This document shows positions 1 to 11,261 of a stretch of DNA of 11,494 nucleotides, piece by piece. The first letter of the stretch is position 1. Each line of letters begins with the position of its first letter. Origin of the DNA: a virus; UHGV virus genome UHGV-1946849, one strand, 5' to 3'. The notes beneath the pieces are model-generated. The model did no database searches. It was given only the letters and a program-made list of their open reading frames with translations, and had not been told where the DNA came from. The translations under genes were made by a program, and so were the position numbers.

Positions 1-4
1 GCAT

Positions 5-81
5 CTAGCGAATCACTCTTTAAAGAGCGAGAAAAAAGGCATGGAACAATATTTTATGCCTTTGTATTAACATGAATTTAA
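5..81. repeat. Left attachment-site direct repeat (attL candidate)
   Basis: 77 bp identical base for base to 11418..11494; identity breaks sharply at position 4 versus 11417. Contains a 7-bp stem inverted repeat AAGGCAT/ATGCCTT. Confidence 0.8.
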
Positions 82-213
82 AAGATTTTATTCTTACTGT
101 TTCATTTTCTGTAAATCATATATCCTCAGTATTTGACATTCATCACTCTAGCGGGAACAATACGACACAATAAGACACCTGATGACTCTTTAAGAAACGA
201 AAGGGGGGCAATA

Positions 214-402
214 GTGTTAAGCACTGATCGGTTTATACGTGAAAAAGAATGCGAAAAACTAACCGGCCTTAGCCGTACGTGTCGCTACCGCCTGGAAAAG
301 GCCGGACAATTCCCATCACGTCGTAAACTTGGCGGTCGTTCCGTTGGCTGGTCTTTATCCGAGGTTCTGGCCTGGAAGGATAGCTGCAAGGCAGTTCATT
401 AA
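214..402 (+). CDS. alpA: AlpA-family winged-helix transcriptional regulator / excisionase-like protein (62 aa from GTG 214; the track ORF extends to TTG 133)
   Basis: Translation RFIREKECEKLTGLSRTCRYRLEKAGQFPSRRKLGGRSVGWSLSEVLAW aligns with E. coli CP4-57 AlpA as recalled. GTG at 214 follows the Shine-Dalgarno AAGGGGGG (201..208); the upstream TTG at 133 lies inside a TTGACA hexamer. Confidence 0.8.
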   Translation: MLSTDRFIREKECEKLTGLSRTCRYRLEKAGQFPSRRKLGGRSVGWSLSEVLAWKDSCKAVH

Positions 403-547
403 TCACGCTGGCGGCACGCAGCCGCCACACATCAATCATCTGAACACAGAGCTATAACCATGAAGATTGAATATACGCCAGAACGTGGGCGGGGATTCGT
501 TCGCCCTGGTGAAACTGAAAAACAACAAAATTGGGGTTTTTCAGGTA

Positions 548-582
548 TAAAAAAAGCGGCCCCGAAATGGAGCCGCCTTTCT
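548..582 (-). terminator. Hairpin terminator, mainly for the leftward operon, possibly bidirectional
   Basis: A-run 548..555, stem GCGGC 556..560 and GCCGC 572..576, then CTTTCT; on the minus strand the stem is followed by TTTTTTT. Confidence 0.45.
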
Positions 583-671
583 GAACAGATAACCCGCTGC
601 GCCGTTTGTGTGTGTGATCCCAAACATAAGCACGGGGATGATAGCCGTTATCAGGCTGGTGGGCAATGCAA

Positions 672-845
672 TCAGTCTGGTTCAGTTCGTTGCCATACCT
701 GCAATGAGCGCTTTTCCCTGTACTCTTTAAGGAATTGCTCAAGGGCAAAAGCACATGGCGCGAATCTTTCTGATTCATGCTCTATCTTTCTGCGCCGTCT
801 TTTCCGTGCCGGTGATAATGTTTTGGTCAATTCTTTATCGGTCAT
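672..845 (-). CDS. Hypothetical small basic protein (57 aa), second gene of the leftward operon
   Basis: Minus-strand ORF with AGGA 7 nt upstream of the ATG at 845; protein-like K/R/E-rich sequence MTDKELTKTLSPARKRRRRKIEH...; followed by the 548..582 terminator. The track start at 860 lacks a ribosome-binding site. Confidence 0.35.
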   Translation of the reverse strand: MTDKELTKTLSPARKRRRRKIEHESERFAPCAFALEQFLKEYREKRSLQVWQRTEPD

Positions 846-902
846 TGTGTTGTCCTGCATAGCAATGCGCCGTAATACCTTACACCACGGCGCTGATGGT
901 GA

Positions 903-1082
903 TTACTCTGGTTCTTTGGCCTTGCGCCGCTGGCGATATTCAACTTCTCGTTTTAATGCCGCAGTAACAAATTGCCCCGTACTTTCGCCAGGCATTTTTA
1001 CCGCCTCAACATTGTTCATAACTTCATGCGGAACCCTTGCCGCAACGGTTTGTGATTTTGCGTTTACCGCTTTTGTCGCCAT
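903..1082 (-). CDS. Ribbon-helix-helix (Arc/CopG-like) DNA-binding protein, 59 aa, candidate repressor
   Basis: Hand translation of the minus strand gives MATKAVNAKSQTVAARVPHEVMNNVEAVKMPGESTGQFVTAALKREVEYRQRRKAKEPE. It shows the R-V-P-x-E-V strand, helix, G-x-S-T turn, helix pattern; GAGGGG ribosome-binding site 8 nt upstream. Below the 60-aa cutoff, so absent from the ORF track. Confidence 0.5.
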   Translation of the reverse strand: MATKAVNAKSQTVAARVPHEVMNNVEAVKMPGESTGQFVTAALKREVEYRQRRKAKEPE

Positions 1083-1132
1083 GTGGTGTACCCCTCATAA
1101 AAAACAAATGCAGTATGCAGGAAAAAAAATAA

Positions 1133-1184
1133 GTGTTCAACACTTGACGTGTTTAACACCTGGGTTTAAATTGGTGTTCAACAC
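1133..1184. promoter_or_regulatory. Divergent promoter region with three palindromic operators GTGTT(C/T)AACAC
   Basis: 11-bp palindromes at 1133..1143, 1149..1159 and 1174..1184. Rightward -35 TTGACG at 1144..1149 and -10 TAAATT at 1167..1172 (17-bp spacer); operators overlap the -35 and the predicted start. Confidence 0.55.
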
Positions 1185-1281
1185 CTTGTTGGCGCAAGGT
1201 GCAGAAACGACGAAACCCGGCAGTGCGCTAACACTAACCGGGCTTCTAACCACCAACGATAGCGAAAGTATCGAGGTAGCT

Positions 1282-1482
1282 ATGAGAAATCATACCACAC
1301 ACCCGCAAGGGCGGGACTCGCACAACCTGAATAAATACATCTGGCGTTTTATCGCCCTGAGCACGGCACAACCGCGCGTGATTACCATTGAGGCCACCAG
1401 CGAACAGGAAGCACGCCAGCAATCTCCGGCTGGCTGCGTGATGGTATTTGCTGCCCGTATTCGTCAGGGGGTAGGCTTATGA
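1282..1482 (+). CDS. Hypothetical protein (66 aa), first gene of the rightward operon
   Basis: ATG at 1282 preceded by GAGGT; its stop overlaps the next start (ATGA). It is the 3' part of the 460..1482 track ORF, whose upstream portion looks non-coding. Confidence 0.4.
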   Translation: MRNHTTHPQGRDSHNLNKYIWRFIALSTAQPRVITIEATSEQEARQQSPAGCVMVFAARIRQGVGL

Positions 1483-1709: not shown

Positions 1710-1920
1710 AACCACACCGGACGCAGCCGCCGCCGCGCTCACTACGCTGATGCACGCGCTTATTGATATTTCTGTTATTGCTGACAGGGCGCATAAACAC
1801 GCAGCCAGAGAATCAGAATGCATCTTCCATTTAGCATTTGTGCAGCTAAAAGCCGATCAGGCACTGGATAAGGCCGGAAAAATTATCATGGCTGATGTGC
1901 AGGAGGTGCACCATGCATAA
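1699..1920 (+). CDS. Hypothetical protein (73 aa from ATG 1699; the track ORF starts at 1645)
   Basis: ATG 1699 follows GGAGGGG (1689..1695) with a 3-nt spacer; no recognisable motif. Confidence 0.45.
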   Translation: MCNKTTPDAAAAALTTLMHALIDISVIADRAHKHAARESECIFHLAFVQLKADQALDKAGKIIMADVQEVHHA

Positions 1921-2278
1921 TCTGTCAATTTCTGACCTTAACAGCATTCAGTTTGATGAGAAATTTACCGGGCAGTTGCTGGTCAATGTGGAGAACGGGC
2001 GCATAGTGCGTAATTATCACCTGCCGGATGGTGCAATTGCCGGAAGCGTTGAAGCATTGCTGGAACTGGCGGAACGTGCGCGACTGATTAAGCCGTCAAC
2101 GAGCCATCACGATGATGATCTGCATTTTACCGGATGTATGGTGAGTCACTACGAAAACGGCGTCGAGGTATCCTGTGAACGGCTGCGTGATGATTGCTGT
2201 TTCGGCACACTGCCGGAATTTATCGAGTTGCTGACCAGTTGCGGTTATCAGGTCATTCAGGGGGGTAAACATGCGTGA
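1913..2278 (+). CDS. Hypothetical protein (121 aa from ATG 1913; the track ORF starts at 1895)
   Basis: AGGAGG ribosome-binding site 6 nt upstream of ATG 1913; overlaps the preceding stop. Confidence 0.5.
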   Translation: MHNLSISDLNSIQFDEKFTGQLLVNVENGRIVRNYHLPDGAIAGSVEALLELAERARLIKPSTSHHDDDLHFTGCMVSHYENGVEVSCERLRDDCCFGTLPEFIELLTSCGYQVIQGGKHA

Positions 2279-2735: not shown

Positions 2736-3035
2736 ATGAAACTTAAATATTCTGGCTTAACTGCCAGTGGCAACACTCACCCTAAATTTACGCGCGGCGA
2801 TATTTACCGCGACCAGTACGGCGGCACGGTAATGATTAAGGGCGTGGAAGAACGGCGCGTAACCTACCGCCGTGAAGGTTACGAATATGATTGCGTGATG
2901 CCTGTTTATCAGTTCCGGCGTGATTTTTCTCTGGTACAGACCGCGCCGCATAACGTGTCCACCAGCAACGCCAGGGCACGGGCAAACATCCAGAAGCTGA
3001 AAACCATGATTAACGGATTCAGGGGTAAAAAATGA
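2736..3035 (+). CDS. Hypothetical protein (99 aa) immediately upstream of and coupled to the primase gene
   Basis: GGAGA ribosome-binding site; stop overlaps the primase ATG (ATGA). Confidence 0.55.
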   Translation: MKLKYSGLTASGNTHPKFTRGDIYRDQYGGTVMIKGVEERRVTYRREGYEYDCVMPVYQFRRDFSLVQTAPHNVSTSNARARANIQKLKTMINGFRGKK

Positions 3036-4786
3036 AACTGGCACCGAACGTAAAACAGCAGTCACGCGGCATAAAACACAAAGAAACAGAAGTCATTATT
3101 TTTGCGGGTAGTGATGCCTGGTCACACGCAAAACAATGGCAGGGACATGACGCGCGTATGGCCGGAGATAATGAGCCTCCTGTGTGGCTTGGGGAGCAGC
3201 AGTTATCCGAACTGGATAAGCTGCAAATTGTGCCGGAAGGCAGAAAATCCGTGCGCATATTCAGGGCCGGATATCTTGCGCCAGTAATGATAAAGGCGAT
3301 TGGTCAGAAGCTGGCGGCGGCAGGCGTACAGGATGCAAATTTTTACCCTGATGGTATGCACGGTCAGAAGGTGGAGAACTGGCGCGAATATCTGGCCCGT
3401 GAGCGCCAGAATCTTTCTGATGGTCTGGTCATTGAGCTTCCGGTAAAGCAAAAGGCGCAACTTTCGCAGATGGCGGACAGTGAGCGCGCGCAGCTGCTTG
3501 CCGATCGCTTTGATGGCGTTTGCGTACATCCTGAAAGTGAAATCGTTCACGTATGGCGCGGCGGGGTATGGTGTCCGGTCAGCACAATGGAACTTAGCCG
3601 CGAAATGGTGGCGATCTATTCAGAGCACAGGGCCACTTTCAGCAAGCGCGTAATCAATAACGCCGTGGAAGCGTTAAAAGTTATTGCCGAACCAATGGGC
3701 GAGCCGTCCGGCGATTTGTTGCCGTTCGCCAATGGTGCGCTTGACCTGAAAACGGGGGAATTTTCCCCGCACACGCCGGAGAACTGGATCACCACGCACA
3801 ACGGCATTGAGTACACGCCACCAGCACCAGGGGAGAACATCCGCGATAACGCGCCAAACTTTCATAAATGGCTTGAGCACGCAGCCGGAAAAGACCCGCG
3901 CAAGATGATGCGTATATGTGCCGCGCTGTACATGATTATGGCGAACCGGTACGACTGGCAGATGTTTATTGAGGCCACCGGAGACGGCGGGAGCGGTAAA
4001 AGTACATTCACACACATAGCCAGCCTTCTGGCAGGGAAACAGAACACGGTAAGCGCTGAAATGACATCGCTTGATGATGCTGGTGGACGTGCGCAGGTTG
4101 TCGGGAGTCGTCTTATCGTCCTGGCTGACCAGCCGAAATATACAGGCGAAGGAACGGGCATCAAGAAAATCACGGGCGGTGACCCCGTGGAAATTAACCC
4201 GAAATACGAAAAGCGTTTCACGGCGGTAATCAGGGCGGTGGTGCTGGCGACCAACAATAACCCGATGATATTCACCGAACGGGCCGGAGGTGTGGCACGT
4301 CGTCGCGTGATTTTCCGTTTCGACAATATCGTCAGTGAGGCCGAAAAAGACAGGGAGCTACCGGAAAAGATCGCGGCTGAAATCCCTGTCATTATCCGCC
4401 GATTGCTGGCGAACTTTACCGACCCTGAGAAGGCACGGGCTTTACTACTGGAACAGCGTGACGGTGATGAAGCTCTGGCAATAAAGCAACAGACGGATCC
4501 GGTTATTGAGTTTTGCCAGTTCCTGAATTTTCTGGAGGAAGCACGCGGCCTGATGATGGGCGGCGGTGGCGATTCAGTGAAGTACACGACCAGAAACAGC
4601 CTTTACCGCGTCTATCTGGCGTTTATGGCGTACGCAGGCAGGAGCAAACCGCTAAACGTAAATGACTTTGGCAAGGCTATGAAGCCAGCCGCGAAAGTTT
4701 ACGGACATGAATATATTACGCGGAAAGTTAAGGGAGTAACGCAGACTAACGCAATAACAACAGACGAGTGCGACGCGTTTTTATAA
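3032..4786 (+). CDS. Replication protein: P4-family primase C-terminal domain / D5-N plus SF3 helicase (584 aa)
   Basis: Walker A GDGGSGKST, a D5-N-like segment LPFANGALDLKTGEF...NGIEY and an SF3 motif C VVLATNNNP; size and layout match Pri-Rep proteins of P4-like elements and PICIs. Confidence 0.88.
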   Translation: MKLAPNVKQQSRGIKHKETEVIIFAGSDAWSHAKQWQGHDARMAGDNEPPVWLGEQQLSELDKLQIVPEGRKSVRIFRAGYLAPVMIKAIGQKLAAAGVQDANFYPDGMHGQKVENWREYLARERQNLSDGLVIELPVKQKAQLSQMADSERAQLLADRFDGVCVHPESEIVHVWRGGVWCPVSTMELSREMVAIYSEHRATFSKRVINNAVEALKVIAEPMGEPSGDLLPFANGALDLKTGEFSPHTPENWITTHNGIEYTPPAPGENIRDNAPNFHKWLEHAAGKDPRKMMRICAALYMIMANRYDWQMFIEATGDGGSGKSTFTHIASLLAGKQNTVSAEMTSLDDAGGRAQVVGSRLIVLADQPKYTGEGTGIKKITGGDPVEINPKYEKRFTAVIRAVVLATNNNPMIFTERAGGVARRRVIFRFDNIVSEAEKDRELPEKIAAEIPVIIRRLLANFTDPEKARALLLEQRDGDEALAIKQQTDPVIEFCQFLNFLEEARGLMMGGGGDSVKYTTRNSLYRVYLAFMAYAGRSKPLNVNDFGKAMKPAAKVYGHEYITRKVKGVTQTNAITTDECDAFL

Positions 4787-4800
4787 TTTTTTGTAATTGC

Positions 4801-5026
4801 TGTCTACCCTGTCTACCTGAGTAAAGAAAAATACATTTAATTCAGTGCATTAAGTTAGGTAGATAGCCTTTTTTTACTGTCTACCCACTATCTACCCTCT
4901 CTACCTGATTTTACCTGAATCAGACAGGGAGGTAGACACGGGGTAGATAGTGGATAAAAGCACTCTACCCCGCTGAAAGCCGCGCCATTACTGGTATGAG
5001 GGCCACTAAGGTAGATAAGGTAGACA
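4801..5026. repeat. Iteron cluster, candidate replication origin / cis replication region
   Basis: At least 11 copies of (G/T)TCTACC(C) in both orientations (forward at 4802, 4811, 4879, 4890, 4900, 4964; reverse GGTAGA at 4858, 4931, 4942, 5010, 5019), non-coding, directly downstream of the primase gene. Confidence 0.6.
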
Positions 5027-5074: not shown

Positions 5075-5353
5075 ATGCACACTTCAGGGAAATTTAATAA
5101 ATCACTCAAAAAACGCAGAGACAGAACAGAACCGAAATATCGCGCGTTAGACATGACAGAGCACGCTTTAAAGGTGGCAATCAGAACGATAGACCGCCAC
5201 GCGGGGGAAGGATACGCGAAAGCACATCCCGAACTGATAAGCGCATTCATGACCACGACGGCGGCAAATTTTGCCACGCTGACAGAGCGGGAGATTGCCG
5301 AAGCGGAACAGGTAACAACCATCAACGTTAAAACCGGAGAGGTGGAATCATGA
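5075..5353 (+). CDS. Hypothetical protein (92 aa), coupled to the ssb-like gene
   Basis: GAGGGGG ribosome-binding site upstream; stop overlaps the next ATG (ATGA). Confidence 0.55.
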   Translation: MHTSGKFNKSLKKRRDRTEPKYRALDMTEHALKVAIRTIDRHAGEGYAKAHPELISAFMTTTAANFATLTEREIAEAEQVTTINVKTGEVES

Positions 5354-5772
5354 CAGCACAGATAGCAGCTTACGGGCGGCTGGTGGACGACCCGCAGGTA
5401 AAACAGACCAGCAAGGGCACACCGATGACGCTGGCGCGTATGGCGGTCCCCCTTCCGTGCAGCCAGGCAGATGACGGAACGGCGACGATGTGGTTATCCG
5501 TCCTGGCATTTGGCAGACAGGCCGAAGCACTGGAAAGGCACCGCAAGGGTGAACTCCTGAGCGTGGCGGGTAACATGCAGATCAGCCAGTGGACTGGGCA
5601 GAACGGAGAAACGCGGCAGGGCTGGCAGGTTATCGCAGACAGTGTAATCAGTGCGCGAACGGCGCGACTGGGCGGCAAAAAAGGTCAACAGGGCCAGGCT
5701 ACTGACGCGCTGAACAGGGCAAAACAACAGGCGGGGAATGATGATCCGTACGGGGATAACATACCGTTTTAA
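5350..5772 (+). CDS. ssb: Single-stranded DNA-binding protein homologue (140 aa)
   Basis: OB-fold segment WLSVLAFGRQAEALERHRKGELLSVAGNMQISQWTGQNGETRQGWQVIADSV aligns with E. coli SSB [52 protein letters not shown]; Gly/Gln-rich linker; C-terminal DDPYGDNIPF resembles the SSB acidic tip DDDIPF. Confidence 0.8.
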   Translation: MTAQIAAYGRLVDDPQVKQTSKGTPMTLARMAVPLPCSQADDGTATMWLSVLAFGRQAEALERHRKGELLSVAGNMQISQWTGQNGETRQGWQVIADSVISARTARLGGKKGQQGQATDALNRAKQQAGNDDPYGDNIPF

Positions 5773-5787
5773 GCGACGAGTGACAGA

Positions 5788-5811
5788 AGCCGGAGCAATC
5801 CGGCTTTTTTA
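5788..5811 (+). terminator. Rho-independent terminator after the ssb-like gene
   Basis: Stem GCCGGA (5789..5794), loop GCAA, stem TCCGGC (5799..5804), then TTTTTT. Confidence 0.7.
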
Positions 5812-5860
5812 CGGGTCCTCCTGGCGGGGTGGGCCTGAACACGGGGCGGGAAGCGCGGAA
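5811..5860 (+). other. Degenerate cos-like relic (cosQ-like with a disrupted cosN)
   Basis: ACGGGTCCTCCTGG...ACGGGGCGGGAAGCGCGG parallels the intact copy at 8253..8300 (ACGGGTCCTTTCCGG...ACGGGGCGGCGACCTCGCGG), and the preceding terminator hairpin is duplicated too. Confidence 0.5.
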
Positions 5861-5990
5861 AAAAGCGCATTTTTGTGATTTTATCGTCATCATCATCATG
5901 AGCGTAATTTATTGTTTTTAATTGTTTTGATGCAAAAAAGATGATGGTTGTGGTTAATTTTCGTTCGACATCTTTGCAGGCAGATAAAAA

Positions 5991-6394: not shown

Positions 6395-7449
6395 TGGCAG
6401 GCAAAGCAACGGCACTTAACACTAACCAGCTTTTCATGTACCTGAATCGCGGGGATATTGCGGATTTTAAATTCAGCCCTCTGTTTACTACGCTGTTTTT
6501 CCCGAACGTGGCGACATTCAGCACGCAAAACATCATGCTGGATACCCTGGACATTGAAGAAGTCACCATGTCGGCGTTTTGTTCGCCTATGGTGGGTAGC
6601 CAGGTTCAGCGCGATAAAGGGTACGAAACCAGCACGATTAAACCTGGCTACATGAAGCCAAAGCACGAAATCGATCCAACGAAAACCATCATGCGCATGG
6701 CTGGAGAAGATCCGGCACAGCTTAACGACCCTACCTATCGCCGTATGCGCCTGATTACTGGCAATATGCGCCGCCAGATAAACGCCATAAAAGCGCGCGT
6801 GGAATGGCTGGCGGTAAATGCGGTAACGACCGGAAAAAACATCATTGAGGGCGAAGGCATAGAGCGCTATGAAATCGACTGGAAGATACCGGAAAAAAAC
6901 ATCATAGAGCAGGCCGACGGGAAAAAATGGTCAGCGCAGGACAAAGAAACCCACGATCCAATCTATGATATCGAACTATACGCCGATCAGGCTGGTTGCC
7001 CCGCAAACGTCATGATTATGGGCGCTGAGGTATGGCGAACGTTACGCAGCTTTAAAAAATTCCGTGAGCTGTACGATCTTTCCCGTGGTTCAGAATCCGC
7101 CGCCGAACTGGCCTGTAAAAACCTGGGCGAAGTGGTGAGCTTTAAAGGCTATCTTGGTGATCTGGCCCTTATCGTCTATTCCGGCAAATACACTGACAGC
7201 GATGGTACCGAAAAATATTTCCTTGAGCCTGATTTGCTGGTCCTAGGTAACACCAACAATAAAGGGCTGGTGGCCTATGGTGCGATAATGGATCAGGAAG
7301 CGGTAAGAACGGGCGCAACACAAAACATGTTTTACCCGAAAAACTGGATTGAGGACGGCGATCCGGCGATTGAGTACGTGCAGACACACAGTGCACCGCA
7401 GCCGGTACCGGCAGATATTCGCAAATTTGTTACCGTCAAAATTGGTTAA
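6394..7449 (+). CDS. Major capsid protein, lambda gpE-like (351 aa)
   Basis: Colinear similarity to lambda E as recalled: FSPLF..LFF, KPGYMKPKHEIDP, DPTYRRMR, GSESAAELACKNLGEVVSFKGYLGDLALIVYSGKYTD, LVLGNT, YPKNW, GDPA. Confidence 0.9.
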   Translation: MAGKATALNTNQLFMYLNRGDIADFKFSPLFTTLFFPNVATFSTQNIMLDTLDIEEVTMSAFCSPMVGSQVQRDKGYETSTIKPGYMKPKHEIDPTKTIMRMAGEDPAQLNDPTYRRMRLITGNMRRQINAIKARVEWLAVNAVTTGKNIIEGEGIERYEIDWKIPEKNIIEQADGKKWSAQDKETHDPIYDIELYADQAGCPANVMIMGAEVWRTLRSFKKFRELYDLSRGSESAAELACKNLGEVVSFKGYLGDLALIVYSGKYTDSDGTEKYFLEPDLLVLGNTNNKGLVAYGAIMDQEAVRTGATQNMFYPKNWIEDGDPAIEYVQTHSAPQPVPADIRKFVTVKIG

Positions 7450-7461
7450 CGGGGGGATTCT

Positions 7462-7797
7462 ATGGACACTCCATACATTGAGTTATTTGCAGGCAGTCAG
7501 CGGGTCGCCACGACGCTGGTACATTTTGCCGCTGATGCTGGCGTTATTCAGGAATTTACCCCGCTGATGCTGGCAGACAATGGCGAGTTTAAGCCGTGGG
7601 ATGGTCAGGAATCTGGCAAGGCTGTTTATCTGACCTCGTACCCTGTGGACACGTCAAAGCAGAAATCAGCACAGTGTTACAAGACGGGGATTTTCAATAT
7701 TGCCGCCGTTAACTGGCCTGAGAGCGTCGACACCGATGCGAAAAAATGCGCCGCCTTTGCGGGTTCCGGCGTATCCGTTCAGCCGCTGGCCCGATAA
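7462..7797 (+). CDS. Head decoration protein, lambda gpD-like (111 aa)
   Basis: FTPLMLAD, WDG, YKTGIFN, WPES and KKCAAFAGSG match the lambda D motifs TPLMLDT, WDG, YKSGTFR, WPEA and KKRTAFAGT. Confidence 0.82.
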   Translation: MDTPYIELFAGSQRVATTLVHFAADAGVIQEFTPLMLADNGEFKPWDGQESGKAVYLTSYPVDTSKQKSAQCYKTGIFNIAAVNWPESVDTDAKKCAAFAGSGVSVQPLAR

Positions 7798-7809
7798 GCA
7801 GGGGGAACG

Positions 7810-8223
7810 ATGGCAACGAATGAAAGCGTCATGACGCTACCGCTGGCGAGTAAATTTAAAGCCGAAGCGCGGGCAATGGCTGACAGAGGTTTATCAACCT
7901 ACGAGGCCGTATATCAACTCAACAAACTGGAAGAGCAGGACAAGCCGCGCGCTGATGCGATTATGGCGCTTCATGAACATAACGACTATCAGCCGCTGTT
8001 ACGTGCAATGGCAAACGTGCCATGTATTAGCGTCGATAATGCTCGTGAAATCCTGAACATGACCATAGAGCAGGAGCGCCCAAAGGTTGCGCCGGAGCTT
8101 ACCGCAGCCTTTGAAAACTTTATGGACATGCACAGCCCGAAAGCCGTATCACCCGGCATGGCATACGACGGCAGAAACCAGGGCGATGAAGGCGACGTCG
8201 ATCGCATACTGAAAACCATCTGA
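7810..8223 (+). CDS. Hypothetical protein (137 aa), last gene of the capsid operon
   Basis: GGGGGAA ribosome-binding site; followed by the terminator at 8229..8252. Confidence 0.6.
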   Translation: MATNESVMTLPLASKFKAEARAMADRGLSTYEAVYQLNKLEEQDKPRADAIMALHEHNDYQPLLRAMANVPCISVDNAREILNMTIEQERPKVAPELTAAFENFMDMHSPKAVSPGMAYDGRNQGDEGDVDRILKTI

Positions 8224-10031: not shown

Positions 10032-11261
10032 GTGAGCAGAGCAATGAACAAACTGAGCGATACCTTGCTAAGGAAACTTCATGGTAAGCCAGCGGAGAAA
10101 AACACGTTTTATAGTGATGGCGGAAACCTGAGCGTGAAATATTTAACATCAGGGAAATTGACCTGGTATTTCACATACAGGGCCGGAACGGGAAGGGAGA
10201 CACGACCCGAACGCATTAAGCTGGGAAGTTATCCTGATCTGAGCCTGAAAGCAGCCAGGGAAAAAGCCGCACAGTGTCGCACATGGCTGGCTGAGGGGAA
10301 AAATCCACGTCATGAGATGAATTACACCGTACAGGAAGCGTTAAAGCCCGTAACGGTTGGCGATGCGCTCACCTACTGGCTTGAGTATTACGTAAAGGAA
10401 AACCGCGTGGATTATATCGCCCTGAAAAGGCGACTTAATAATCACGTAATACAGCAGATTGGTGCTATGCCGCTGGATAAATGCGAGCTACGGCACTGGC
10501 TGGCCTGTTTTGACCAGGTGGTAAAGCGAACGCCTGTTACTGCCGGATTCGTGCTACAGGCGTGCAAACAGGCGCTTAAGTTCTGCCGTAGGCGGCGCTA
10601 TGCAATCAGCAACGTTCTGGACGATCTGAACGTTGCGGACGTTGGGAAAAAACCGGATATAAGCGAACGTGTCTTAAGTAACAAAGAACTTGGCGAATTA
10701 TTGCAGGCACTGGACAAAAAAATATTCTCCCCTTACTACGTCGCGTTAATCCGCCTCCTGATTGTCTTCGGAGCCAGAACGGTAGAACTGAGGTTATCGG
10801 AGATCGGGGAGTGGGATTTTACGGAAATGCTATGGACCGTTCCGAAGGAGCACAGCAAAACGAAGGTCGCAATATTCCGGCCCATACCGGAAGCGATCCT
10901 GCCGTTCGTCACGCAGCTGGTGGAGCAGAACAGGCACACGGGCTTATTGCTGGGGGAAGTGAAACAGGAGGCCAGCGTATCGCAGTATGGAAGATTAGCG
11001 CACAGGAGGCTTAATCACCCTCACTGGTCACTGCATGACATCCGGCGCACCTTTACAACCATGCTGAACGATTTAGGCGTTGATCCGCATGTCGTGGAGC
11101 AGCTTACAGGCCACCAGATGCCAGGAATGCAGCGAGTTTATAATCATTCCCGTTATCTGGATGCGAAACGCAATGCGCTGGATATGTGGACGGAGCGGTT
11201 AGGGATACTGGCGGGAACACATGAAAACGTAACCACGCTACCCGTAGCCAGAAGAAAATAA
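10032..11261 (+). CDS. int: Tyrosine recombinase, P4-type integrase with N-terminal arm-binding domain (409 aa)
   Basis: N-terminal arm-binding-domain pattern (DGGNLSVKYLTSGKLTWYFTYR...IKLGSYPDLSLKAAREKA); catalytic region with R..HDIRRT..LTGH..Y residues; GTG start after GAGGGGG. Confidence 0.93.
   Translation: MSRAMNKLSDTLLRKLHGKPAEKNTFYSDGGNLSVKYLTSGKLTWYFTYRAGTGRETRPERIKLGSYPDLSLKAAREKAAQCRTWLAEGKNPRHEMNYTVQEALKPVTVGDALTYWLEYYVKENRVDYIALKRRLNNHVIQQIGAMPLDKCELRHWLACFDQVVKRTPVTAGFVLQACKQALKFCRRRRYAISNVLDDLNVADVGKKPDISERVLSNKELGELLQALDKKIFSPYYVALIRLLIVFGARTVELRLSEIGEWDFTEMLWTVPKEHSKTKVAIFRPIPEAILPFVTQLVEQNRHTGLLLGEVKQEASVSQYGRLAHRRLNHPHWSLHDIRRTFTTMLNDLGVDPHVVEQLTGHQMPGMQRVYNHSRYLDAKRNALDMWTERLGILAGTHENVTTLPVARRK

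Follow-up and report, generated by a model that had tools for sequence, protein, structure and literature searches.

A candidate ribbon-helix-helix switch, a predicted SymR-like antisense RNA and an Eta-like reading frame in the same kilobase of an EcCICFT073-type phage satellite

What is encoded between the regulatory gene alpA and the replication genes of a phage satellite, when a long open reading frame (ORF) and a set of small features on the other strand claim the same DNA? The question is raised by UHGV virus genome UHGV-1946849, a stretch of 11,494 bp (the window in what follows), which is an EcCICFT073-type phage satellite, that is, a Gram-negative phage-inducible chromosomal island (PICI). 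An earlier note on this DNA set aside a plus-strand ORF as spurious. Beneath it, on the minus strand, it described an unannotated ribbon-helix-helix (RHH) gene and a gene for a small basic protein, and it read three palindromes at a divergent promoter as the repression switch of the island. The ORFs are indeed present (460..1482 on the plus strand, 340 aa; 903..1082 and 672..860 on the minus strand, 59 and 62 aa), as are the three palindromes GTGTTYAACAC at 1133-1184, which overlap a TTGACG/TAAATT promoter. The idea of a switch is upheld in that the palindromes are very likely operators, and it was incomplete in that the region also encodes a predicted antisense RNA at 1203-1283. Taken together, the region 403-1482 is probably the regulatory hub of the island and would combine an RHH repressor, an antisense RNA and an Eta-like override. 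The repressor is the best supported layer of this proposal, on the strength of comparison between loci, and we infer the override by analogy with P4.

The leftward gene in the middle of the region encodes the protein of 59 amino acids. It is not unannotated, as had been supposed: PGAP annotates it in RefSeq as 'YlcI/YnfO family protein' (WP_000201461.1), with no assigned function, and older records such as LR881103 do hide the gene. The protein matches NCBIfam NF041551 (YlcI_YnfO_N) with 59.7 bits against a curated cutoff of 30 (E = 2e-16), and also PHROG 949, a family without a function label. A Pfam scan (E <= 1) returned no family except a chance Med10 match, and no helix-turn-helix (HTH) or other repressor family; a profile search of the PDB gave nothing relevant and matched no solved chain. 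When the family was compared by hhalign with Arc (E = 0.0077, probability 5%) and with Mnt (E = 0.52), neither match was significant, although the Arc alignment runs in register over the strand and helix A. The family alignment (A1) has the pattern K9-S-x-x-x-x-x-R16-V-P18 for the strand, H19..K29 for a helix, an invariant G32-E33-S34 turn and T35..R50 for a second helix, with no C-terminal toxin-binding extension. The AlphaFold2 monomer has an extended N-terminus and helices at 19-28 and 35-56 (mean pLDDT 80.7, >90 in the helices), and it is structurally similar to solved RHH proteins, with low absolute scores. Because the alignment pattern and the model agree, the RHH fold proposed in the earlier note is accepted here, on pattern and predicted fold and not on any curated sequence model. 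The family is narrow: there are 74 homologous clusters, a profile search among 1.84 billion proteins found only 79 representatives at 50% identity, and all fetched loci are from Enterobacterales.

The evidence that ties this protein to the palindromes comes from related islands. Seven further E. coli loci were fetched along with 31 from other genera (Edwardsiella, Pectobacterium, Kosakonia, Dryocola, Yokenella, Limnobaculum, Serratia, Xenorhabdus, Proteus, Klebsiella and others), and operators and frames were compared in a set of 31 related loci, which represent about 12 genera. With the RHH start codon as reference, the -35 (TTGAxx) lies at offset 61 in nearly all of them, one repeat at 66 and a second at 88-92, just after the -10. 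A third repeat stands at offset 21, beside a conserved TATACT on the RHH strand; in the class to which the window belongs it is found at offset 50 instead. The sequence of the repeat varies together with the N-terminal arm and beta-strand of the protein, in at least 10 classes. As examples, an arm and strand of the form SQT[VLI]AARVP goes with the repeat GTGTTCAACAC, SQ[AS]LK[AS]RVP with GTGGGCCACAC, K[SR]KKLEARVP with GTGGCTGACAC, SQK[LV]Q[AT]RAP with GTGGAGTCCAC, SQKMSARVP with (A/C)TGGGTGCCAG, SQKIQARAP with CTGGAATCCAG, SKRFDVRVP or SQKTSVRIP with GTGTCCGACAC, and SQMTTVRIP with GTGTATTTCAC. In RHH proteins the N-terminal arm and the beta-strand are the parts that contact DNA. In Mantel tests the operator distance of the loci goes with residues 1-8 at r = 0.66 (p = 2e-4), with residues 9-18 at r = 0.30 (p = 0.005) and with the helices at r < 0.2; position 14 is the best single predictor of a shared operator (0.65 vs 0.02). 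Since the repeat changes with the arm and strand of the protein while its positions are fixed in the 31 loci, the three palindromes are very likely operators of the 59-aa protein at a divergent promoter pair, and this co-variation is the decisive comparative evidence for them as candidate operators.

The operator class also behaves independently of its neighbours. In locus L007 the AlpA protein is 68% identical to that of the window and the operators are the same, whereas in L004 AlpA is 93.5% identical and the operators differ; the second leftward protein is identical in the window, L004 and L006, and operator class does not follow it either. Between the window and EcCICFT073, identity is 100% at 661-870 and 1291-1620 and only about 50-65% at about 880-1240. 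To judge from the alignment, this latter segment is a swapped cassette, and its content is exactly RHH gene, operators and adjoining hairpin. A copy of the palindrome with one mismatch (GTGTTAAGCAC) lies at the alpA start codon (214-224). It was considered as a fourth operator and rejected because it does not co-vary, being unchanged in EcCICFT073, whose operators are different.

Within the window, the placement of the candidate operators is informative as well (Table 1). GTGTTYAACAC occurs exactly three times in the 11,494 bp, all three at 1133-1184, where dinucleotide shuffles of the sequence lead one to expect 0.03 copies and none of 200 shuffles reached three. The first copy (O1) abuts the -35 of the rightward promoter P_R and overlaps that of a leftward promoter P_L, the second (O2) starts at the last base of the P_R -35 and fills the spacer, and the third (O3) covers the expected transcription start. 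O3 begins two bases 3' of the -10 in the window and overlaps the last two -10 bases in most relatives. At P_R these are, as predicted, repressing and not activating positions. In most relatives the -10 of P_L is TATACT at the same offset.

Between P_R and the first rightward gene lies a second predicted element, an antisense RNA of about 75-80 nt. Read on the minus strand, it consists of a 5' hairpin, a single-stranded UUGGUGGUUAGA, a 3' hairpin of 14 bp and a U-rich tail, and it spans the Shine-Dalgarno sequence and the start codon of an Icd-like gene. The Rfam model of symR (RF01809) matches it over its full length (1209..1281, minus strand; 33.3 bits, E = 0.0035) and also matches the homologous site and strand in four other loci, with 45.6 bits at best (L015) and 28-32 bits in the others. 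The minus strand folds with -36.5 kcal/mol (z = -5.5). In an alignment of 28 loci (A2) the paired cells amount to 98%, and compensatory changes are seen in 15 of 18 pairs; none of 500 shuffles reached these values. There are 48 G-U cells on the minus strand against no A-C cell, and the plus strand pairs 88% of cells where the minus strand pairs 98%; because of the 48 to 0 asymmetry, the hairpin structure is, by the evidence of covariation, selected on the minus strand. RNAalifold likewise gives -32.9 kcal/mol for the minus and -6.9 for the plus strand. A covariance model built from the 28 loci (R1) scores 77.4 bits in the window and 60-88 bits in every family member, among them LR881103 (L040) with 75 bits. 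The annotated symR of K-12 is matched as well (29.6 bits, E = 7e-5 in 224 kb). Beyond it and the family loci no match exceeds about 14 bits, and P4 and 95 kb of CFT073 control DNA gave none. The two-hairpin architecture of SymR with its conserved single-stranded linker can be detected in both directions. In relatives, the start-codon complement is preceded on the minus strand, at a fixed distance, by a TAnnnT hexamer, and in the window an extended -10, TGgTATGAT, can be read there; from this spacing the 5' end of the RNA is placed at about 1283, at the Icd-like start codon (1282-1284), which would be the SymR/symE geometry. A conserved SymR-like antisense RNA at this position is well supported by comparative sequence analysis. 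As a side observation, another Rfam family, the 'int-alpA RNA' RF02996, matches a Xenorhabdus relative (L024 5019..5087) with 42.1 bits against a threshold of 35.8, and it was not found in the window at E <= 1.

The third element is the long ORF. Its last 66 codons are the Icd-like (P4 Kil-like) gene, which is nested in frame at its end and heads the rightward replication operon; from there to the primase, neighbouring genes overlap or abut. Upstream, the window has a single in-frame stop, the stop codon of alpA (TAA, 400-402), and it is at this codon that the frame opens. Opposite the RHH gene, the three plus-strand frames contain 96, 0 and 106 stops over the compared loci, the second of them being the frame of the long ORF, which is free of stops in every one of the 31 loci. 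Over the interval of roughly 190 nt that separates the RHH start from the first rightward ATG the counts are 170, 21 and 161, and in the promoter and operator part of 19 representative loci they are 61, 5 and 56, all five coming from one locus whose -35 is displaced by 1 nt. When codons of the RHH genes are resampled synonymously, a stop-free frame has a probability of 0.09-0.68 in a single locus; the product over 19 loci is 4e-10, a figure that overstates the significance as the loci are related. Upstream of the Icd-like gene the frame is open for 169 to >360 codons in 15 of 27 loci; most of the remaining ones have a long open stretch in the same phase relative to the RHH gene, and in many loci and genera the long frame starts shortly after alpA. 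Because it ends in the Icd-like C-terminus and is kept stop-free across the family, the 340-aa ORF is probably not spurious, contrary to the earlier note; selection may act on the passage of ribosomes rather than on a protein. The description of its product as Cys/Ser-rich and low in complexity holds as far as the Cys enrichment is concerned, with 15.5% Cys+Ser at 682-1281 (10 C and 21 S in 200 aa), and the sequence is not truly of low complexity. The strings 'KTKAAP' and 'AGGQC' were considered as an N-terminal protein motif and rejected, as they map onto the opposite-strand terminator hairpin and neighbouring DNA.

Table 1. Features of the regulatory region and flanking landmarks in the 11,494-bp window
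Feature	Position	Strand	Basis or details
alpA, AlpA/Vis-family regulator	214..402	+	Pfam Phage_AlpA E = 5e-17; PGAP annotation
Eta-like long ORF, 340 codons	460..1482	+	stop-free from 403; encloses RHH operon, operators, antisense RNA and Icd-like gene
Intrinsic terminator of leftward operon (predicted)	549..577	-	GGCGGCUCC-AUUUC-GGGGCCGC, GC-rich stem of 8-9 bp, then U7
Second leftward gene, 57-aa basic protein	672..845	-	alternative ATG at 860; annotated in orthologous loci
Hairpin between the two leftward genes, without U-run	867..893	-	-16.9 kcal/mol, z = -2.9; present in E. coli relatives
RHH repressor candidate, 59-aa YlcI/YnfO-family protein	903..1082	-	ORF list, PGAP, NCBIfam
Leftward promoter P_L (putative)	1112..1140	-	-35 TTGAAC (1140..1135, in O1), 17-nt spacer, -10 CATACT (1117..1112)
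Candidate operator O1	1133..1143		GTGTTCAACAC; abuts P_R -35, overlaps P_L -35
Rightward promoter P_R (predicted)	1144..1172	+	TTGACG-17-TAAATT; consensus promoter scan
Candidate operator O2	1149..1159		GTGTTTAACAC; starts at last base of P_R -35, fills spacer
Candidate operator O3	1174..1184		GTGTTCAACAC; over expected transcription start
Hairpin at 5' end of predicted P_R transcript	1182..1201	+	CACCUUG-UUGGCG-CAAGGUG; inverted repeat I4 and fold
SymR-like cis-antisense RNA (predicted), about 75-80 nt	1203..1283	-	Rfam, fold, covariation
Icd-like (P4 Kil-like) gene, 66 aa	1282..1482	+	NF033153 E = 1.4e-19; PGAP Icd-like
Extended -10 of antisense RNA (putative)	1289..1297	-	TGgTATGAT, read from sequence
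P4-type primase gene	3032..4786		after a run of small rightward genes
Integrase gene	10032..11261		right end of window

Comparison of the loci shows a co-evolving RHH/operator cassette at the predicted promoter that heads the icd-to-primase string of genes, a structured minus-strand RNA that would be complementary to the operon leader and start codon, and an enclosing frame that is kept open. How these should be read is a different matter. The reading of the earlier note keeps the RHH switch as real and takes 460..1281 as a meaningless 'shadow' frame that is by chance in frame with the Icd-like gene. The first 274 codons have no protein family match, the translation is Cys-rich as is typical of antisense translation, its conserved stretches map to the opposite-strand RHH gene and terminator hairpin, stops occur in the intergenic part in 7 of the 31 loci, and PGAP treats 460..907 as a pseudogene fragment. 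Such a frame would hardly be expected to lack stops opposite the RHH gene in every locus when the other two frames have 96 and 106, or to give so small a resampling product over the 19 loci. Nor would it be expected to carry five stops, all in one locus, against 61 and 56 in promoter and operator DNA where there is no other coding; it also opens just after alpA in many genera and reproduces the eta/kil arrangement of P4. The shadow frame is thus considered unlikely, though it has to be taken seriously. A plus-strand role for the hairpins at 1203-1281, as an mRNA leader that affects stability, attenuation or the ribosome-binding site, is clearly less probable. The plus strand folds too (z = -2.9), the minus-strand transcript is itself predicted, and its promoter consists of a -10. 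Against this, each of the 48 minus-strand G-U cells would turn into an A-C mismatch if read on the plus strand, and there is no cell of the opposite type, so that a leader structure is rejected as the cause of the hairpin conservation; the consensus fold energies point the same way, the U-rich tail follows the hairpin on the minus strand only, and SymR is matched in both directions, on the correct strand.

The two remaining readings concern the repressor. It is very improbable that the palindromes are bound by another protein (AlpA, the 57-aa protein or a regulator of the helper phage or host) while the RHH protein acts elsewhere. Binding of the palindromes by the RHH protein is deduced from the comparison, AlpA is a DNA-binding regulator of these islands (PMC6092414), and there is the palindrome with one mismatch at the alpA start codon. 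The operator class nonetheless tracks the RHH arm and strand and neither AlpA nor the second protein, the swapped cassette is confined to the RHH gene, the operators and the adjoining hairpin, and the copy at alpA is the same in EcCICFT073 despite the different operators there. Least probable of all, and rejected, is a type II toxin-antitoxin module in which the RHH protein would be an antitoxin autoregulating at the palindromes, and the 57-aa protein its toxin, with no role as island repressor. Outside E. coli and Shigella there is no conservation of the second gene; most genera have the RHH gene by itself, with a terminator-like hairpin directly behind it. Of the three operators, two lie in the spacer and start site of P_R and not at the RHH promoter, the toxin-binding extension is missing, and the second gene is identical where RHH genes and operators differ.

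The hub with its three layers is therefore preferred to these alternatives, and several observations weigh against it. The frame is broken in the intergenic part in the 7 loci mentioned above, and the product of the long ORF has no conserved protein motif beyond what the overlapping elements impose. The SymR matches, at 33-46 bits, all fall short of the 61 bits that RF01809 sets as its gathering threshold, a -35 cannot be recognised in the antisense promoter, and the U-tail of the RNA is interrupted (UUUCGUCGUUUCU). P_L scores 8 of 12, below the scan cutoff, and was read from the sequence instead. The 59-aa protein has neither a sensor nor a cleavage domain through which repression could be relieved. 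Kinship among the loci inflates the p-values and other statistics, and every function named here is deduced from sequence.

With these points in mind, the three layers could work together as follows. At rest, dimers of the RHH protein on O1, O2 and O3 would shut P_R, which would drive the Icd-like gene and the replication operon, and binding at O1 would limit P_L, the promoter of the RHH gene itself. The N-terminal arm and beta-strand would set the specificity for the operator and in this way create distinct immunity classes. Transcripts that escape from P_R would be met by the antisense RNA, made from the extended -10 just inside the Icd-like gene, which would pair with their leader, Shine-Dalgarno sequence and start codon. 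This would block translation of the toxic Icd-like protein, and the coupled genes downstream might be silenced by polarity since they overlap start to stop. Induction begins when the helper phage switches on alpA, whose product is a DNA-binding regulator of these islands (PMC6092414); in Pseudomonas aeruginosa an AlpA homologue is described as an antiterminator (PMC7969949). Transcripts from the alpA side would then run rightward across the weak plus-strand face of the terminators, and translation of the Eta-like frame would carry ribosomes over the leftward operon, the operators and the antisense target into icd and the replication genes. Both repressive layers would be bypassed by this passage of ribosomes, and convergent transcription would lower the output of repressor. 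The AntA/Bro-N antirepressor-type genes of some relatives could add a route of relief at the protein level.

A broader version of this proposal is put forward tentatively, and we would lean slightly against it as it stands. [quoted passage not shown] In 2018 the existence of a repressor in Gram-negative PICIs was described as 'unclear' (PMC6092414). A survey from 2023 names AlpA, Bro-type proteins and C4/isrK RNAs as regulators and describes the genes as essentially unidirectional (PMC10111431), and one from 2026 lists YlcI/YnfO merely as a 'prophage-associated protein' (PMC13612085). In the searchable literature, which does not include subscription-only papers, no paper was found in which Gram-negative PICIs are credited with a repressor, an RHH protein or an antisense RNA. 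From their sequences, the RHH gene, the three operators and the antisense RNA look like a so-far undescribed on/off switch of a common E. coli PICI family. If the RHH protein is the repressor, immunity groups could explain how several islands coexist in one cell, there would be a handle for engineering PICI-based delivery vehicles, and the model of induction would shift from 'activation by AlpA' to 'override of a repressed state'. The SymR-like RNA would tie a chromosomal type I toxin-antitoxin system to satellite regulation, and for the study of antisense-overlapping genes an open frame that is conserved opposite a real gene offers a clean candidate.

The second leftward gene appears to be of a different kind from the elements discussed so far. 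The 62-aa ORF starts at 860, and its orthologues are annotated from the ATG at 845, giving 57 aa. The protein belongs to PHROG 21027 (E = 1e-15), a family without a function label, and has the conserved core SPxRKRRRRK...ERFAPCAFxLExFLKEY; it is probably largely disordered. It is found in 36 clusters, the named ones almost all from E. coli or Shigella, and in other genera the place behind the RHH gene is mostly taken by a terminator-like hairpin or unrelated ORFs instead. Because of this restricted distribution, the gene is best taken as a lineage-specific accessory outside the core switch. The leftward operon ends, as the earlier note had it, at a hairpin with a T-run. This terminator dominates the minimum-energy fold of 530..600 on the minus strand (71 nt, -28.1 kcal/mol, z = -3.4), and a simple terminator scan did not report the hairpin at 549-577. 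Two further hairpins lie between it and alpA: GGCGGC-ACGCA-GCCGCC immediately 3' of the alpA stop codon (409..427, z = -3.3), and CTGAAAAACAACAA/TTGGGGTTTTTCAG at 515..544. On the plus strand both lack a U-run, and read-through from alpA may be modulated by them.

Some of the related loci differ from the window in ways that touch these elements. In L002 (E. coli O104:H21) an extra 59-aa gene is found in the leftward operon (1813..1992, minus strand), with a product containing …PPFQFRLDPDLREKMEKAQQQDGDDSLAAWIKRIIRKEL… that also looks like an RHH protein of the Arc/MetJ type, so that this island would have two RHH genes. L003 (175..975) and L005 (1..1266) have antirepressor-family genes (AntA/AntB and BRO-N) between alpA and the RHH module, an interval that measures only about 270 nt in the window. 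The long frame of L003 has its first ATG at 968, 8 nt short of the antA stop codon (975), a placement that suggests translational coupling. L040, LR881103, is deposited as 'Escherichia phage vB_KppS-Ant', an induced element of 16.5 kb with capsid, portal and terminase genes, and looks like a satellite of the cf-PICI type. Here a hypothetical ORF of 975 nt (6997..7971) is annotated opposite the YlcI/YnfO homologue, which itself has no annotation, the same masking as in the window. Annotation is also at issue for the Icd-like family, which PHROGs (phrog_6196, phrog_1743) labels 'transcriptional repressor'. The same product name stands in the RefSeq entry of P4 on the old 'cI gene product (AA 1-137)' ORF, which overlaps the CI RNA gene and shares its stop codon with the nested Kil-like reading frame. 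The label is likely a propagated misannotation.

As for the island itself, the window also contains an SSB gene, a capsid gene like lambda E and a decoration gene. EcCICFT073, located by similarity search in strain CFT073 between roxA and phoQ, covers 86% of the window with 93% identity; the gene order is common to both and the module occurs in EcCICFT073 itself. The left 5.7 kb of the window are shared with a cf-PICI-type island with its own capsid and terminase genes. Positions 400-1500 are found with 100% identity in about 200 complete E. coli genomes, and the module in 1,803 of 5,426 such genomes, at up to 6 places per genome. In a phage collection a DNA search had no match and a protein search found a single record, which is satellite-like; hence the module is not a feature of ordinary phages. 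On chromosomes int stands directly before alpA, whereas the window has int at its right end (10032..11261) and alpA at its left end, after positions 1..213, and the best genome match covers the window in two pieces. For these reasons the window looks like a circularly permuted copy of the island, either excised or assembled as a circle, with the attP junction between int and alpA. Just 3' of the primase gene there is a long imperfect inverted repeat (4873..4954), to which Rfam gives a chance 'mir-135' match (23.9 bits, E = 0.28). The replication origins of PICIs are reported to lie downstream of pri (PMC10111431), and the repeat may be part of ori.

How does such a region compare with known systems? 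YlcI and YnfO of the lambdoid prophages DLP12 and Qin belong to the same NCBIfam family as the RHH protein; K-12 YlcI has the same pattern, with RNIRFP, a helix, GSGNFS and a second helix. The surroundings are different. K-12 ylcI (L045 4752..4946) is divergent from nohD (5335..5880, a homologue of the terminase small subunit) across a gap of 388 nt, and no triple repeat like the operators of the PICIs was found upstream of it. Stl, the repressor of Staphylococcus aureus pathogenicity islands (SaPIs), is an unrelated protein of the HTH type, and the RHH protein matches no HTH-type repressor family in Pfam. Stl is relieved by a helper-phage protein, whereas for Gram-negative PICIs only activation by AlpA is documented. 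The likeness with Stl/Rpr is one of layout, with a repressor gene that is divergent from the excision and replication operon and lies between int and pri, and of presumed role (PMC6092414). The position of the RHH gene and the predicted placement of its operators fit the class of PICI master repressors.

The immI region of phage P22 has the RHH repressors Mnt and Arc, the divergent promoters Pant and Pmnt, and the antisense RNA sar. It resembles the window in the combination of RHH repressors at divergent promoters with a short antisense RNA on the downstream ribosome-binding site. In contrast to the window, where icd and the replication genes would be controlled, immI controls ant and has no enclosing long ORF, and the RHH protein of the window has no significant sequence similarity to Arc or Mnt. 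With SymE/SymR of K-12 (RF01809), the antisense RNA shares the two-hairpin architecture and a single-stranded motif (UUGUGGUUAGA here, UUGUGAUUAGC in SymR). It would also start at the start codon of its target and run antisense through the Shine-Dalgarno sequence and 5' untranslated region, and the models match reciprocally. It differs in scoring 33-46 bits where the gathering threshold is 61, in being predicted from sequence, in having as its target the Icd-like gene that heads a replication operon and not symE, and in lying in a satellite beside a protein repressor.

The most extensive likeness is with the immunity region of P4. Here as there, the order is alpA/vis, a long ORF with the early promoter and a nested Kil/Icd-like gene of about 65 codons, and the primase operon. 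In P4, eta has 197-199 codons, its ATGs overlap the vis stop codon, and it runs through PLE and the CI region into kil (65 codons); in the window the frame is open from 403 to 1482, P_R lies within it and the Icd-like gene is nested at its end. According to PMC10111431, which summarises Forti et al. 1999, translation of eta from upstream transcripts prevents immunity-specific termination in P4 and so overrides immunity. P4 differs in lacking a protein repressor and any opposite-strand gene between vis and PLE, and its immunity depends on the CI RNA, which is made from the same strand. The Rfam families C4, isrK and c4-a1b1 all match P4 and none of them was found in the window (E <= 1), so that a P4-type CI/C4 RNA is rejected there. 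In L002 (2870..3238) and L007 (1950..2299) an insert of about 350 nt, an 'ash family' pseudogene by PGAP, lies between the leader and icd and resembles by eye the isrK/C4 (seqA/CI) region of P4; these islands may combine the RHH switch with RNA immunity of the P4 type. In the window, the inside of the long ORF carries instead an antisense RHH operon, predicted protein operators and a predicted cis-antisense RNA. By ancestry the region is a relative of vis-eta/kil of P4 in which a protein repressor and a cis-antisense RNA would have taken the place of RNA immunity or been added to it.

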